This document shows positions 7,417 to 49,300 of a stretch of 64,000 nt of DNA, piece after piece. The stretch lies in NCBI RefSeq assembly GCF_003790525.1, contig NZ_CP033635.1; one strand, written 5' to 3'. The translations under genes were made by a program, and so were the position numbers. The notes under the pieces are model-generated. The model was not told the origin of the DNA and did no database searches. It worked only from the letters and a program-made list of their open reading frames with translations. Numbering within the stretch: position 1 is the first letter of the stretch; every line of letters begins with the position of its first letter. The stretch comes from Escherichia coli (lineage in GTDB: Bacteria; Pseudomonadota; Gammaproteobacteria; Enterobacterales; Enterobacteriaceae).

Positions 7417-8368
7417 ACCATTCCTTATGTTTCAGAGGGTTAGCCATGGCACCCAAAATATCAGAAATCACGTTAACAATAATGACCAGTGAGCCACACA
7501 CCATCACTCCGGCGGAAATGGCTGCGTAATCCTGCTGGCGGATAGCGTTAATTAACCAGCGCCCTAAACCCGGCCAGCTAAAGACCATTTCGGTGATCAT
7601 CGCCAGCGTCAGCATGGTAGAAAACTGTAAGCCCAGGCGAGGAATAACCGGAGGTAACGCGTTATGCAGAACGTGGCGACGCAAAATAGTAAAGCGCGAC
7701 AAACCGCGGGTCGCCGCTGCTTTAACATAGTTCTGGTCATACACTTCGATAGTGCTGATACGCATTAGTCGGATCACTTCAGTTGTTGGCGCAACCGACA
7801 GGGTGATCACGGGTAATATCATATGGCGAATTGCGCTCATGACCATTTCATCCCGCCACGGTGAGTCCGAAAGCCAGGCATCAATCAACGCAAAACCGGT
7901 AATCGGTTTCACTTCGTAGAGCAAATCGAAACGCCCAGAAACGGGCAACCAACCTAGCGTGAGTGAACAAAACAGCGTCAGCAGAAGCGCCAGCCAGAAC
8001 ACCGGGATTGAAAAGCCCAGTAAGGCGATGGCGTTGATCAAGTTATCCTGCCACTTATGGCGCGTAATCCCGGCAATCATTCCCATGGGGATGCCAACAA
8101 TCAGCGCAAAACCAAAGGCGAGGATGCACAGCTCCATCGTCGCCGGGAAGACCTCTTTTAACTGTTCGGCAATCGGTTGACCGTTAATGCTGGAAACACC
8201 AAAATCCCAGTGGATCAGGCCGTTAAACCAGAACACCCAGGCATTCCACAGTGACGCGCCTTGTAACGGCGCATGTGGGGTGAAATAGCTCAAGCTGAAG
8301 CCAACGAAGGTCAGCAGGAACAAGGTGACAATCAATAACAAAATACGGCGTAAGGTGAAGATAATCAT
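7403..8368 (-). CDS. sapB: ABC transporter permease SapB
   Basis: 321-aa membrane ORF, DppB/OppB-like; 4-nt overlap with sapA stop. Confidence 0.9.
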
Positions 8369-10008
8369 GGCTTTTTCACCTCATCCTGTTTCTCGCGATA
8401 CACCCCAGCAAAGGAGGCGTTACCAAACGGGCTAAGTACCAGACCTTTGATATCGTACCGATAGGCCTGCAAACGCAATGACGACGCCAGCGGCAGAATA
8501 GGTAATTCCTGCGCCAGAATACTTTGCGCTTCGTCATAGGCTTCAATACGCGCCGCCAGCTGCTGCGAAGAGAGCGCCTTACGCAATACGCTGTCGAATT
8601 TCGGATCGCACCAGTGGGCGAGGTTGGTCTGTGAATGAATTGCCGCGCAGCTCAGTAACGGACGGAAGAAACTGTCCGGGTCGTTACTGTCCGTCGCCCA
8701 ACCGGATAACGTCAGATCATGGCTCATATCCATCAACCGCGCCTCCTGAAAACGACCTTCTACCGGCACAATCACCACTTTTACGCCAACCTGTGCCATA
8801 TCCGCCTGAATCAGTTCGGCGGTTTTCAGTGGACTGGGGTTCCACGCCTGCGAACGTGTGGGCACCCACAGTTTCAGCGTTAAGTTTTCCAGCCCCAACG
8901 CCTTCAACTGTTCGCGCGATTTTGCCGGATTGTATTCAGTAATTTTAGCCTCGTTGTCATAGGCCCACGAGGCGCGCGGTAAAATAGAGGCCGCCGTTTC
9001 AGCCGTACCATAATAGATGGATTGCATCAGGCGCTGGTTATTAATCGCCAGTGCCAGTGCATGGCGGACCGCCGGATTATTTAGCGGCGGTTTAGCGGTG
9101 TTAAACGCCAGATAGGCGACGTTCATCCCCGGGCGCAGCGTTAAACGCAAGCGCGGGTCGTCACGCAAAATGGATAGCTGACTGGCGGCAGGCCAGGCCA
9201 GAACGTCGCATTCCCCGGTCAGGAGTTTCGACAGACGTCCGGTGCCGCCGGAGCCTAAATCCACCACCACCTGCGGCATTAACGGCTTACCACGCCAGAA
9301 GTCATCATGACGTTGTAAGCGAATATATTGCCCGGCGCGGTATTCCGACAACTGATACGGACCGGTGCCGACCGGTTGACGGTCGAGTTGCTCCTGGCGA
9401 TCTTCTTTCTCTAACTTCCCTGCATATTCTGCCGACATGACCGAAGCATAATGGGTCGCGAGGTGCCACAAAAAAGAAGCATCCGGCTGAGCCAGACGGA
9501 ACTCAACGGTATGATTATCCAGTTTACGGACGCTTTTCACGTTATCGGCAAATTGCAGGCTGTCGAAATAGGGGAAGTTGCTGCCATTAACGTTATGCCA
9601 CGGGTTGTTGCGGTCAAAAATTCGCTGGAAGGTAAACACCACATCGTCGGCATTCATTTTACGAGTGGGAGTAAACCAGTCGGTTTTTTGAAACGGAACA
9701 TCGCGACGCAGGTGGAAGCGATAGGTCGCGCCGTTGTCGAGTACTTCCCAGCTTTCGGCAAGTTCCGGCATCAGGCGATAGGTATAGGGATCGACATCCA
9801 GCAGTCGATCATAAAACTGGGCGGCAAGGGTATCGACAATTAACCCACTGCTCGCTTTGGATGGGTTAAAGGTGTTGACTTGCCCGCTGACGCAATAGAC
9901 AAAACCGCTGTCGCGGATATCAGCATGCGGGGGGGATTCAGGCGCGGCGATTGCCTGACCACTCACAAGTCCAGCAATCACCAAAAGAGACGATAATACC
10001 TGGCGCAT
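8365..10008 (-). CDS. sapA: Periplasmic substrate-binding protein SapA
   Basis: 547-aa ORF with signal peptide ([13 protein letters not shown]), family-5 solute-binding fold; first gene of sap operon. Confidence 0.9.
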
Positions 10009-12387: not shown

Positions 12388-13806
12388 TTACGCGTTTTTC
12401 AACATCCACTCAATTTCTGTTTCTGTGATGAGGCGCTCAAACTGCAACAGCTCATCATTTTTACAGGCGTGATAGACATGGCAGAAGCGTTCGCCTAAAT
12501 AGCGGCGCAGGTGATCATTCTCGATAAACTCACCCAGGGCATCGCTCTGGCGAATCGGGAAGGGTAAGCCTTCCTGTTCCAGCCCGTTACCTTCGACTTC
12601 TTCCTGTAATGGCAGTTCGTTATCAAGGCCATGCAAAATACCGGCAAAAATCGCCGCCATCACCAGATACGGGTTGGCATCGGCACCCGCCACGCGATAT
12701 TCCACGCGGTGATTATGGCGATCGCCGCAGGGAATACGCAGGGCGACGGTGCGGTTGTTATGGCCCCACGACGCCTGCGTCGGTACATACATACCTGGCT
12801 GGAAGCGGCGATACGAGTTCACGTTTGGTGCCAGCAACGCCATTGATGACGGCATCAGGTCAATCATCCCGGCAAGCATCTTTTTCAGCAGCGGCGAATC
12901 TTCGCCTTCCGCGTCAGAAAGCACGTTCTCGCCACGGTTATTTTGCATACTGATATGGATATGCATCCCGCTGCCCGCGTGCTCTTCATACGGCTTCGCC
13001 ATAAAAGTGGCGTGCATCTTATGCTTTTCTGCCATCAGACGCACCAGGCGTTTTAGTGCCAGCGCATCATCGCAAGCTTCCAGCACGTTATCGGTATGGT
13101 AAAGATTGATTTCAAACTGACCCGGCGAGGCCTCAGCGACCGCGCCATCTGCCGGAATCAGCTGTAACTGCGCCAGCTCATCAATATCATTGAGCACGTC
13201 GGCGAAGTGGTTGAGGTTATCAACGGAGTAAACCTGGCTTTGTGTATTGCGGTCATCGGTGCCGGGCGCGCAGGGCGGTTGCAGATACCCTTCAGCGTCG
13301 CGCTGGCGATCCAGTAAATAGAACTCCAGCTCTACCGCTACGACCGGGAACAATCCGCGCTGGCGCAGCTGCTGCCACAGGCGGTTAAGAACGTTCCGCG
13401 GCTCAACGTCAAAGGGAGCGCCATCTTCATCGACCATGGTCAGGAGCATCTGACCGATAAACTCTGGATCGGCGGCAGAAGGGGTTAAGGAACCGAGAAC
13501 AGGAACACAGGTACGATCCGGCTCGCCCATTTCCTGACCCAGGCCCGCTTCTTCTACTACGTTGCCCAGAATATCCATTGCAAACACCGAGGCCGGGAAA
13601 TAACACCCTTTCTCGAGCTTCTTCAGGCTTGAAACAGGAATACGTTTTCCACGGAAGCAACCATTCAAATCGGTAAGTAAAACATCAACATATTGCGTAT
13701 TCGGGTAGCGCTCCAGGTAGCGTTTCACTTCCTGCGTAAAGGCGCTACCCCGCCTCTCTTCTGACTGCTGAACAAAGTTCTCTACTTCAACGATATTGGT
13801 TTCCAT
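12388..13806 (-). CDS. puuA: Gamma-glutamylputrescine synthetase PuuA
   Basis: Glutamine-synthetase-like ORF; start set at METNIVEV (472 aa). Confidence 0.9.
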   Translation of the reverse strand: METNIVEVENFVQQSEERRGSAFTQEVKRYLERYPNTQYVDVLLTDLNGCFRGKRIPVSSLKKLEKGCYFPASVFAMDILGNVVEEAGLGQEMGEPDRTCVPVLGSLTPSAADPEFIGQMLLTMVDEDGAPFDVEPRNVLNRLWQQLRQRGLFPVVAVELEFYLLDRQRDAEGYLQPPCAPGTDDRNTQSQVYSVDNLNHFADVLNDIDELAQLQLIPADGAVAEASPGQFEINLYHTDNVLEACDDALALKRLVRLMAEKHKMHATFMAKPYEEHAGSGMHIHISMQNNRGENVLSDAEGEDSPLLKKMLAGMIDLMPSSMALLAPNVNSYRRFQPGMYVPTQASWGHNNRTVALRIPCGDRHNHRVEYRVAGADANPYLVMAAIFAGILHGLDNELPLQEEVEGNGLEQEGLPFPIRQSDALGEFIENDHLRRYLGERFCHVYHACKNDELLQFERLITETEIEWMLKNA

Positions 13807-13849
13807 GATTCTTCGCCTTTGGTTTGTTTTCCGCTCGTTATCAAAGCGT

Positions 13850-13864
13850 AAAATATAATGACCA
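13850..13864. promoter_or_regulatory. Putative PuuR operator in divergent puuA-puuD region
   Basis: AAAATATAATGACCA is one mismatch from the PuuR 15-bp box as I recall it (AAAATATAATGAACA); a related AAAAAATATTGAACA lies at 13945-13960. Confidence 0.4.
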
Positions 13865-14017
13865 CTATTCGAATCTGTATGCAAACTAAATGTTTGTCAA
13901 ATGTTAAATTGAGTTTGCAAAAATGAAAAACCACTGCTAGATTGAAAAAATATTGAACATAAAGGTCATTTAAAGCGCAGTAATGGCGATAATTTAGTCC
14001 ACTTTGTGAGATTGAGC

Positions 14018-14782
14018 ATGGAAAATATAATGAACAATCCGGTTATCGGTGTCGTAATGTGCAGGAACAGGCTTAAGGGTCATGCGACCCAGACTCTGCA
14101 AGAAAAGTACCTGAATGCCATCATCCACGCAGGCGGTTTGCCAATAGCGCTACCACATGCGCTGGCGGAACCGTCGTTACTTGAACAACTTTTGCCGAAA
14201 CTCGATGGTATTTATCTTCCTGGTAGTCCCAGCAATGTGCAGCCGCACCTATATGGTGAAAACGGCGATGAGCCTGACGCCGATCCCGGGCGTGATCTTC
14301 TGAGCATGGCGTTAATTAATGCCGCACTCGAAAGGCGCATCCCCATTTTCGCCATCTGCCGGGGTTTACAGGAACTGGTGGTGGCAACCGGTGGTTCGTT
14401 GCATCGCAAGCTGTGCGAACAGCCTGAATTGCTGGAACATCGGGAAGATCCCGAACTGCCGGTGGAGCAGCAATATGCACCGTCGCATGAAGTTCAGGTT
14501 GAAGAGGGGGGATTGCTGTCTGCGTTGTTACCTGAATGTAGCAACTTTTGGGTAAACTCTCTGCATGGACAAGGGGCGAAGGTCGTTAGCCCACGGTTGC
14601 GTGTTGAAGCTCGCTCGCCGGATGGCTTAGTTGAGGCGGTTAGCGTCATCAATCATCCTTTTGCGCTGGGCGTACAGTGGCACCCGGAGTGGAACAGTAG
14701 CGAGTACGCGCTTTCGCGTATATTGTTCGAGGGCTTTATCACCGCTTGTCAGCACCATATCGCTGAAAAACAGCGACTCTGA
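14018..14782 (+). CDS. puuD: Gamma-glutamyl-GABA hydrolase PuuD
   Basis: Class-I glutamine amidotransferase-like ORF; start set at MENIMNNPV (254 aa). Confidence 0.88.
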   Translation: MENIMNNPVIGVVMCRNRLKGHATQTLQEKYLNAIIHAGGLPIALPHALAEPSLLEQLLPKLDGIYLPGSPSNVQPHLYGENGDEPDADPGRDLLSMALINAALERRIPIFAICRGLQELVVATGGSLHRKLCEQPELLEHREDPELPVEQQYAPSHEVQVEEGGLLSALLPECSNFWVNSLHGQGAKVVSPRLRVEARSPDGLVEAVSVINHPFALGVQWHPEWNSSEYALSRILFEGFITACQHHIAEKQRL

Positions 14783-14808: not shown

Positions 14809-15366
14809 ATGAGTGATGAGGGACTGGCGCCAGGAAAACGCTTGTCGGAAATCCGCCAGCAGCAGGGGCTTTCACAACGTCGTGCCGCCGAACTCTCCGG
14901 GCTGACTCACAGTGCTATCAGTACGATAGAACAAGATAAAGTCAGCCCTGCCATCAGTACGCTGCAAAAGCTGCTGAAGGTGTATGGTCTGTCACTCTCG
15001 GAATTCTTTTCCGAGCCGGAAAAACCTGATGAGCCGCAGGTCGTCATTAATCAGGACGACTTAATTGAGATGGGCAGTCAGGGTGTGTCAATGAAGCTGG
15101 TTCATAACGGTAACCCGAATCGCACGCTGGCGATGATCTTTGAAACGTACCAGCCGGGCACAACCACTGGGGAAAGAATTAAGCATCAGGGTGAGGAAAT
15201 AGGCACTGTACTGGAAGGTGAAATTGTTCTGACGATTAATGGTCAGGATTATCATCTCGTCGCGGGGCAAAGTTATGCCATTAATACCGGCATCCCGCAC
15301 AGTTTCAGTAATACGTCGGCAGGTATTTGCCGAATTATCAGCGCCCATACGCCCACCACGTTTTAA
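14809..15366 (+). CDS. puuR: HTH/cupin repressor PuuR
   Basis: 185-aa ORF with N-terminal XRE-type HTH and C-terminal cupin. Confidence 0.9.
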   Translation: MSDEGLAPGKRLSEIRQQQGLSQRRAAELSGLTHSAISTIEQDKVSPAISTLQKLLKVYGLSLSEFFSEPEKPDEPQVVINQDDLIEMGSQGVSMKLVHNGNPNRTLAMIFETYQPGTTTGERIKHQGEEIGTVLEGEIVLTINGQDYHLVAGQSYAINTGIPHSFSNTSAGICRIISAHTPTTF

Positions 15367-48268: not shown

Positions 48269-49300
48269 TTAGCGACCCTGGTCCGGCGGTGTAATGTTAT
48301 CCATATACAGCGTCTGGCTGGGGAAGGCAAAGTCCGCACCGTGTGACTGTACAATATCGATAATCTTCAAATAAACGTCTTGCTGTGCAGCAAGCCACTC
48401 AGCCCATACCGTGGTTTTGGTAAAGCAATAAACCATAATATTTAATGACGAATCAGCAAACTGGTTGAAATAAACCAGTAAGGTTTGTCGCTGGTCGATG
48501 GCCGGGTGATTTTTCAGCATCTCACGTACGGCTTCGACAATAACGCCCACTTTTGCCGCATCCTCATAACGTAAACCAATGGTCGTGGTAATGCGCCGGT
48601 TGGTCATTCGTCCAGGATTTTCTACGCTGATCGACGAAAACAGCGAGTTCGGTACGTACAATGGACGATTATCAAAGGTCTTAATTTTGGTAATTCGCCA
48701 GCCAATTTCCGCTACTGTACCTTCGATATTTCTGTCCGGTGAACGGATCCAGTCGCCAATACTGAAAGGACGGTCGAAATAGAGCATAATCCCGGAAAAG
48801 AAGTTACTCAGAATATCTTTACCGGCCATACCGACAGCCAGACCACCAATACCACCAAAGGTCAACAAGCCAGAAAGGCTCATGCCGAAATGTTCGCCAT
48901 AAAGCAGAACAAGCACCACAATAATGGTGATTTTGATAATGCGCGACATGATCCGCGCACTGGTGATATCGCGACCTTTTTTAATCTGCTGTTTTTCAAA
49001 CTGATTAATCAGCAGAAATAGCTTAATCGTCAGAATAACCGCAATCAGGGACGTACAGATAAAATCGATAACGCCTGGGGTGATAAATTTGAGTTTATAG
49101 TTTTCTATAACATAGTTAATGATGCTACCAACAGCACTAATAATTATGGTGTAGATTAAAAATTGCACCGCATGGAATAAAAATCCTTTTCTTTTACGAT
49201 TTCCACGGCGAAACCAAAAGCTCATCAGAATCAATGCTGCGCAGCTACCGAAAATAATGACCAGATTAAGCGCATTATTTGTAAACAGTTCAGCGATCAT
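48269..49300 (-). CDS. ynaI: Small-conductance mechanosensitive channel YnaI (MscS family)
   Basis: 343-aa ORF with N-terminal TM helices and MscS-like C-terminal domain. Confidence 0.9.

Follow-up and report, generated by a model that had tools for sequence, protein, structure and literature searches.

The closest described counterpart of the locus analysed here is the puuA-puuD intergenic region of Escherichia coli K-12, whose PuuR operators were reportedly described by Nemoto et al. 2012 (J Bacteriol 194:3437); locus, genes, repressor and the number and spacing of boxes are the same in both. According to secondary sources, binding of PuuR to the puuA-puuD spacer has been shown in K-12, where the protein represses the puu genes and dissociates when putrescine is present, i.e., putrescine releases it from the DNA. 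In one such source, the spacer is said to hold four PuuR DNA-binding motifs (PMC9951944, citing Nemoto 2012).

Two further groups of described systems bear on the region. The first comprises the XRE-cupin repressors of Pseudomonas (PauR, PsdR, and ErfA; PMC7901475), which have the HTH_3 plus Cupin_2 architecture in common with PuuR, and among which PauR controls the same gamma-glutamylation pathway. Like PuuR, these proteins repress adjacent metabolic genes, bind core promoters, and are released by a metabolite of the pathway; their palindromic motifs, core-promoter binding, and regulation of neighbouring genes were set out by Trouillon et al. 2021 (PMC7901475). The Pseudomonas motifs are palindromic, implying dimers, whereas the PuuR boxes are imperfect dyads that have been described as non-palindromic, and the one or two boxes of the Pseudomonas repressors compare with what are probably four boxes at a single locus for PuuR, one of them inside a coding sequence. 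The second group comprises the multi-direct-repeat sites of ArcA (Park et al. 2013, PMC3798270). That study, which treats puuD and puuR as a single operon ("puuDR"), reported (i) an ArcA ChIP-seq peak in the K-12 puuD/puuA spacer with the core box atgtttgtcaaatgttaa (14 bits), and (ii) ArcA repression of 15.3-fold for puuA and 10.6-fold for puuDR. The 43-bp, four-repeat puuD site listed there is identical to the one found here, the two differing only in the strain that carries them.

For the present locus, gene annotation was taken from RefSeq record NC_010498.1 (E. coli SMS-3-5), to which a 901-base query around the region is 100% identical. Within the window, by which we mean the whole 64-kb stretch of DNA that was analysed, the genes and the spacer between them lie as follows:

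12388 to 13806, minus strand: coding sequence of puuA (glutamate-putrescine ligase), from the RefSeq annotation and a Pfam Gln-synt_C match (E = 2e-106)
13807 to 14017, no strand: puuA-puuD intergenic spacer, 211 bp and 33% GC, from annotation, open reading frames, and composition
14018 to 14782, plus strand: coding sequence of puuD (gamma-glutamyl-GABA hydrolase), from the RefSeq annotation and a Pfam Peptidase_C26 match (E = 8e-70)
14809 to 15366, plus strand: puuR repressor gene, from the RefSeq annotation and matches to HTH_3 (XRE; E = 6e-15) and Cupin_2 (E = 6e-19)

In the annotation of NC_010498.1, these genes are flanked by puuP and ymjE on the puuA side and by puuCBE on the puuR side; puuR itself directly follows puuD as the second gene of the regulated operon. 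The product of puuR thus has the features of the family outlined above, with an XRE helix-turn-helix (HTH_3), a C-terminal cupin domain (Cupin_2), and a gene placed beside its targets in the operon. The spacer is markedly poor in GC (33.2% versus 51.1% for the 64-kb window), with only 0.5% of 211-bp segments being as AT-rich. A preliminary description of this DNA had proposed an AT-rich divergent puuA/puuD control region of 210 bp, which annotation, open reading frames, Pfam matches, and GC content bear out, the exact span of the spacer being 211 bp; the proposed end at 14017 does not hold for the control region, which continues into the puuD coding sequence, where its strongest box is located.

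That description had also suggested comparing the operators with those of K-12. Over positions 13760 to 14070, 309 of 311 positions are identical to K-12 MG1655, with every box, the box number, and the spacing unchanged, and the PuuR protein is 100% identical. The two substitutions (T at 13866 and A at 13930, as in the SMS-3-5 allele, with C at both positions in K-12) fall outside the boxes, in the spacers of the puuA and puuD promoters, and nothing of substance differs. Positions 13807 to 14017 are therefore the already characterised puuA/puuD switch region with its PuuR boxes, in an ordinary allele. Gene context, AT-richness, the box family, and this near-identity to K-12 all support the original reading of the segment as a PuuR control region. 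The locus, the repressor, the inducer, and the ArcA site have all been published already; what is mildly new is the reading of the boxes as 18-bp dyads and the conserved spacing of four sites, and these are refinements of a known system, with no new system among them.

The boxes were sought with the 15-mer AAAATATAATGAACA, which we take to be the published PuuR recognition consensus. Allowing up to three mismatches, a consensus scan of the 64 kb returned seven matches against 1.98 expected, and with up to two mismatches only three places are left: box 1 at 13850 to 13864 (AAAATATAATGACCA, one mismatch), box 2 at 13945 to 13959 (AAAAAATATTGAACA, two mismatches), and box 3 at 14022 to 14036, a perfect copy without mismatch in puuD codons 2 to 7. 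These same three places were grouped as one three-copy, 15-nt family (D1) by a repeat finder that had been given no motif. The match to this 15-mer is itself partly circular, the consensus presumably having been derived from these very sites; support that does not depend on it comes from the de novo repeat, from conservation across genera, and from recurrence at a paralogous locus.

The preliminary description had named two of these copies. Both were recovered by the scan and by the motif-free repeat finder, with the second ending at 13959 and not at 13960; the best copy, at 14022 to 14036, had been missed, and the sites probably number four in all. The "related half-sites" that it also mentioned reduce to one, AGGTCATT at 13964 to 13971 (in inverted repeat I2), no other being supportable, and this one is kept only in close relatives of E. 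coli.

In the matrix scan, reverse-strand matches at boxes 1 and 3 are offset by 3 nt, and the motif would thus reach three bases further left than the 15-mer and be roughly symmetric. With that extension, the boxes read as 18-mers:

13847 to 13864, plus strand: O1, PuuR box CGTAAAATATAATGACCA, supported by the 15-mer scan, family D1, conservation in 59 loci, and the matrix; it overlaps the predicted puuA -10
13942 to 13959, plus strand: O2, PuuR box TTGAAAAAATATTGAACA, supported by the 15-mer scan, family D1, conservation, and the matrix; it reaches from -7 to +11 in the puuD promoter
13984 to 14001, plus strand: Of, candidate fourth and weaker PuuR box TGGCGATAATTTAGTCCA, putatively assigned from conservation and the matrix; it lies at +36 to +53 in the puuD leader
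14019 to 14036, plus strand: O3, the strongest PuuR box TGGAAAATATAATGAACA, supported by the 15-mer scan, family D1, and the matrix; it covers puuD codons 1 to 7, at +71 to +88 of the transcript

With the symmetric matrix, O3 (20.3 bits), O1 (19.2 bits), and O2 (17.3 bits) are the first, second, and third positions in the window, all three belonging to the set on which the matrix was trained.

Conservation was assessed in one genome per species with PuuR, giving 80 loci, of which 59 keep the divergent puuA/puuD-puuR arrangement; these 59 orthologous loci range from Escherichia to Serratia and Pantoea. Their spacers measure 205 to 239 bp (210 to 213 bp in 43 of them), and their alignment consists of near-invariant islands with freely diverging sequence between. 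From left to right, the islands are the box 1 core ATATAATGnCCAC, a central block (ATGTTTGTCAAATGTTAAAT followed by GTTTGCAAA), the block CACTGCTAGATTG, the box 2 core AATATTGAAC, the block ATAATTTAGTCCA, and box 3. At O1, the core ATATAAT, G13848, and the CA at 13863 to 13864 are invariant, and AATATTGAAC is the part of O2 that is conserved. Spacing is likewise fixed: O1 and O2 lie 95 bp apart in 53 of the 59 loci, O2 and Of 41 to 42 bp, and Of and O3 34 to 35 bp; O1 lies 32 bp from the ArcA site in 54 of 59.

The same arrangement recurs outside the orthologous set. Serratia carries a second locus with puuA-like and puuR-like genes and no puuD, at which motif and spacings are as in E. coli, and the same holds at distant loci of Rahnella and Pantoea. 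Near-perfect dyads such as TGGGCAATATATTTTCCA occur at these puuD-less Serratia and distant Rahnella and Pantoea loci, none of which were used in building the matrix, with spacings of 96 and 77 bp or of 42 and 36 bp. Downstream of puuR, the motif is rare, with 0.01 matches per kb that score 12 bits or more.

The central conserved block is the ArcA site, not a PuuR site. It contains TGTTA-type direct repeats at 11-bp spacing, and both the site and its core box agree letter for letter with PMC3798270; the core is near-invariant in the 59 loci. In Table S6 of Park et al. 2013 (PMC3798270), the site is placed at -70 to -28 of the puuDR start, which puts the puuD start at 13949, within box 2. The elements between and around the boxes can then be laid out as follows:

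13855 to 13860, minus strand: predicted puuA -10, CATTAT, proposed from the letters; inside O1 and 18 bp from TTGCAT
13879 to 13884, minus strand: predicted puuA -35, TTGCAT, likewise proposed from the letters; at the left edge of the ArcA site
13879 to 13921, plus strand: ArcA binding site of 43 bp, ATGCAAACTAAATGTTTGTCAAATGTTAAATTGAGTTTGCAAA, holding four direct repeats; identical to the site obtained by ChIP-seq in PMC3798270
13915 to 13920, plus strand: puuD -35, TTGCAA, 17 bp upstream of TAGATT and fitting the derived transcription start
13938 to 13943, plus strand: puuD -10, TAGATT, in the conserved block CACTGCTAGATTG and ending 6 nt before 13949
13949, plus strand: puuD(R) transcription start, derived from Park et al. 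2013 Table S6 (PMC3798270) with our own conversion to window positions

The outer ArcA repeats form a 12-bp inverted repeat (I1) and coincide with both divergent -35 hexamers, TTGCAT (13884 to 13879) being the left arm of I1. For puuD, the first bases of TTGCAA and TAGATT are 23 bp apart in every one of the 59 loci. For puuA, to which the tables of Park et al. 2013 (PMC3798270) assign "no TSS", the predicted -35 position keeps ATGCAA, or a variant that bears TTG, in the 59 loci, and TTGCAT and CATTAT would serve as its -35 and -10 elements. O2 thus overlaps the core promoter of puuD, from -7 to +11 of the derived start, and the overlap of O1 with the puuA -10 is a predicted one.

These promoter assignments rest on conservation and the published start position. 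A simple sigma-70 scan called neither the puuA nor the puuD promoter, because both fall under its threshold of 9 matches in 12; its only call was TTGTGA-16-TATAAT at 14004 to 14031, ending inside O3, and the number of calls is no better than in shuffled sequence. An FNR site has also been reported for the puuA-puuD spacer, according to a secondary citation of Partridge et al. 2006; for the FNR consensus TTGAT-N4-ATCAA, the spacer gives only 3-mismatch matches (13831 to 13844 and 13887 to 13900), which is the background level.

Taken as a whole, these elements make it very probable that the region is the shared control region of the back-to-back puuA and puuD-puuR promoters, at which the local XRE-cupin repressor PuuR, as the main regulator, occludes both promoters, ArcA adds anaerobic repression, and putrescine releases PuuR. 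PuuR, with its XRE helix-turn-helix and cupin sensor, would bind four related AT-rich boxes: O1 would cover the predicted puuA -10 and start, O2 would sit across the core promoter of puuD, and Of and O3, in the puuD leader and first codons, may act as auxiliary sites or roadblocks. Once bound, the boxes would exclude RNA polymerase from both promoters or block its progress. As putrescine binds the cupin domain, PuuR would leave the DNA, and puuA and puuDR, puuR included, would be transcribed; since puuR lies in the puuD operon, the circuit would be autoregulated through the boxes. ArcA, covering both -35 hexamers between the boxes, would afford an additional degree of repression when oxygen is absent. 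The boxes may also interact with one another, whether cooperatively or by looping.

How PuuR recognises the boxes can be read from the comparative data in somewhat finer detail. The symmetrised consensus over all orthologues is TGGTCAATATATTGACCA, and the G at position 2, which lies outside the 15-mer, is invariant at O1 and Of in the 59 loci, as is its dyad partner, the C at position 17. With moderate confidence, the PuuR boxes are best read as 18-bp imperfect dyads (TGGnCAATATATTGnCCA). Confidence is held at that level because the individual E. coli boxes are weakly symmetric: by our own count, single boxes have 4 to 5 of 9 complementary position pairs, and O2 does not have the left half of the dyad. 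The best natural copies, by the same count, are symmetric at 7 of 9. PuuR would presumably bind such sites as a dimer. A palindromic operator would accord with the motifs described for the Pseudomonas XRE-cupin repressors. A 2025 paper, in which the PuuR site is described as not palindromic and no evidence is seen for PuuR acting as a dimer, stands against this, and one 2025 study depended on the motif being non-palindromic. The comparative data suggest that the motif in databases is a truncated form of the 18-bp dyad, a point relevant to regulon scans in other species.

A broader version of this reading is tentative, and we consider it less likely than not. It holds that (i) the operator is an 18-bp dyad bound by a dimer and not an asymmetric 15-mer, (ii) the four dyads are 95, 42, and 35 bp apart, (iii) O1, O2, and Of lie on the same face of the helix, (iv) a looped or higher-order complex shuts both promoters, and (v) the site embedded in coding sequence dictates the first codons of PuuD. 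Taking 10.5 bp as one turn, 95 bp corresponds to approximately 9.0 turns and 42 bp to approximately 4.0, and these whole-turn spacings hint at cooperation between sites. Were the reading true, the fixed spacing kept from Escherichia to Serratia and Rahnella would point to one complex silencing both divergent promoters.

The identity of the fourth site is where an alternative has most to recommend it. The locus holds three strong boxes and one weak, conserved candidate, one of the strong boxes falling outside the spacer itself, within the puuD coding sequence. Of is probably the fourth PuuR site, bringing the total to four; this assignment draws on the alignment and the matrix. Of could instead be no PuuR site at all, serving as a second, -35-less (and possibly sigma-S) puuD promoter with GATAAT at 13988 to 13993, or as the site of some other protein, which we judge unlikely though still worth weighing. 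Several points fit that alternative: the match of Of to the box matrix in E. coli is weak (9.5 bits with the 18-mer matrix, and -0.9 bits with the ungapped 15-mer matrix, on which it fails), the GATAAT that it includes agrees with the -10 consensus at 5 of 6 positions, and puuA and puuD have been reported as rpoS-dependent in vivo. Against it, Of has the same 18-bp length as the boxes, with TGG...CCA ends, the invariant G at position 2, and the invariant C at position 17; ATAATTTAGTCCA within it is conserved in the 59 loci, and a matrix whose training set excluded Of ranks it 7th among 63,983 positions. The paralogous and distant loci, moreover, carry strong box matches (16 to 17 bits) at the offset of Of, with 42 bp separating it from the preceding O2 and 36 bp from the following O3. 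Of is without a conserved -35, we know of no second puuD start site, and the count of four motifs in the secondary source has no other fourth candidate that scored.

One other place was considered for a fourth site. The puuA coding sequence also begins ATGGAAA and has conserved first codons; it was rejected, since nothing at its start reaches 4 bits on the 15-mer matrix.

An explanation of the conserved leader and first codons at the level of RNA was also considered. A consensus fold of 18 orthologous puuD leaders gave essentially no structure (-0.25 kcal/mol, with no covariation), and the sole Rfam match was sub-threshold, a CRISPR repeat found by chance at E = 0.4. With the consensus fold essentially unstructured, no covariation, and no meaningful Rfam match, that explanation was rejected.

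O3 calls for a separate argument, in that it covers the puuD start codon and codons 2 to 7. Its conservation at 14019 to 14036 could reflect constraint on the start of the reading frame, whether on the N-terminal peptide or on AT-rich, unstructured codons, such that only the two intergenic boxes would be PuuR sites. Bacterial coding sequences generally begin with AT-rich stretches of little structure, and the first 13 codons of puuA are likewise unusually conserved at the nucleotide level, both of which would suit such an account. Even so, we find it quite improbable, given that the amino acids of puuD change (E, G, or V at codon 2; M or F at codon 5; N, D, or Y at codon 6 over the 59 loci) as the motif positions stay fixed. 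Codons 3, 4, and 6, among them a rare isoleucine ATA that never varies, have a third-position entropy of zero, compared with 0.75 to 1.83 bits at codons 8 to 13. No other sequence in the 64 kb, moreover, matches the motif of the non-coding boxes as well as box 3 does, loci without puuD retain the same 18-mer 124 bp upstream of puuR, and the puuD leader is free of conserved RNA structure. As judged from the alignment, O3 is constrained as DNA, beyond the constraint on its codons. This is of practical consequence for putrescine biosensors: O3, the strongest box, occupies the opening seven codons of puuD and would be missing from a promoter fragment that ends at the start codon.

That the boxes are mere promoter furniture of an AT-rich spacer (-10-like TATAAT, UP-like A-tracts, or nucleoid-protein sites), their repetition arising from low complexity, is scarcely credible: the spacer is indeed only 33% GC, O1 and O3 each hold a perfect TATAAT (the latter within the only promoter-scan call), and the minus strand of O1 provides the predicted puuA -10, yet the GC-containing box ends (TG..CA, with G at position 2 and C at position 17) are conserved like the AT core, O3 lies in coding sequence 71 to 88 nt past the transcription start, a place with no evident use for a promoter element, a separate paralogous locus repeats the same 18-mer, shuffled sequence gives the promoter scan as many matches as are found here and the 15-mer scan far fewer, and direct PuuR binding at the spacer is reported in the secondary literature.

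Elsewhere in the window, matrix matches at 7471 to 7488, 9320 to 9334, and 49249 to 49263 are all inside coding sequences and were treated as chance occurrences. Upstream of puuP, puuC, and puuE, the matrix scan found no PuuR box and nothing of at least 5 bits; the control of these three genes is left unexplained by the boxes at the puuA-puuD spacer.

Within E. coli, the region varies little. A 201-bp core was found in 4,370 of 5,426 complete genomes, with identity never below 95%; when the ranking was sampled at even intervals, the lowest identity among full-length matches was 98.0%. Among 11 strains sampled across that ranking, six positions are polymorphic (13866, 13876, 13930, 13933, 13975, and 14005), and the A at 13930 is absent from all 11 of these other strains. 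The described elements cover 119 of the 201 positions, and all six polymorphisms fall outside every one of them, the chance of which is approximately 0.005 by our own calculation. Strong purifying selection has acted on the set of elements, and the sampled strains show no variation inside any of them.

The whole puuA-puuD junction (window positions 13500-14400) was found in 4,371 of the complete E. coli genomes, which number 5,426, leaving approximately one genome in five in which it is missing. Six matches to the junction lie in plasmid-labelled records. The E. coli strain EM10-18-28 (locus L083 in our comparison, NZ_CP063476.1) carries a natural deletion of ~228 bp, equivalent to window positions ~13657-13885, by which the 5' end of puuA, its predicted promoter, and PuuR box O1 have all been lost; the ArcA core, boxes O2 and O3, the candidate weaker box Of, and puuD-puuR are intact, with puuA annotated as a pseudogene. 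For E. coli LR9-2 (locus L084, NZ_CM188245.1), annotation gives a frameshifted puuA, although the control region is intact. At the single-nucleotide level, window position 13930, which falls in the puuD promoter spacer, is an A here but C or T in K-12 and in 10 further sampled strains of E. coli; this A may thus be restricted to the SMS-3-5 lineage.

Two further sequence features lie in the junction:

13800-13807 (TTTCCATG) and 14017-14024 (CATGGAAA): perfect 8-bp inverted repeat, I3, with one arm at either end of the spacer
14004-14031, plus strand: sigma-70-like promoter match (TTGTGA, 16 bp, TATAAT; 10/12), its -10 element within O3

The inverted repeat exists because puuA and puuD both begin with ATGGAAA; codons 1-13 of puuA, moreover, are unusually highly conserved at the nucleotide level. 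Transcription from the promoter-like match would start inside puuD, and in the promoter scan the count of sigma-70-like matches was not above that in shuffled sequence. With respect to the PuuR box matrices, the next-best matches in the window (13.0-15.8 bits) are located at 7471-7488, 9320-9334, and 49249-49263, all within coding sequences (sapB, sapA, and the open reading frame at 48269-49300), and are presumably due to chance.

Outside E. coli, Buttiauxella sp. A111 (locus L031) contains a 10-bp insertion directly after O2, aligned past window position 13959, that duplicates the right half of this box (…ATATTGAACGATATTGAGCAA…); its spacer thus measures 222 bp with the insertion, and O2 is displaced relative to Of and O3. 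An Enterobacteriaceae-type puu locus is also present in CACSKA010000001.1 (locus L026), titled "Chryseobacterium sp. 18061," with a PuuR that shares 95% identity with the E. coli protein; this assembly is probably mislabelled or contaminated.

Serratia species possess a second locus (L059, L060, L063, L065-L067, L069, and L071-L076), where divergent puuA-like and puuR-like genes flank a spacer of ~360-400 bp, with no puuD in between. The 18-bp boxes and their spacings are the same as those at puuA-puuD. There, the O3-type box, found ~124 bp upstream of puuR, starts with ATGGGC; this start resembles a remnant of the beginning of puuD.
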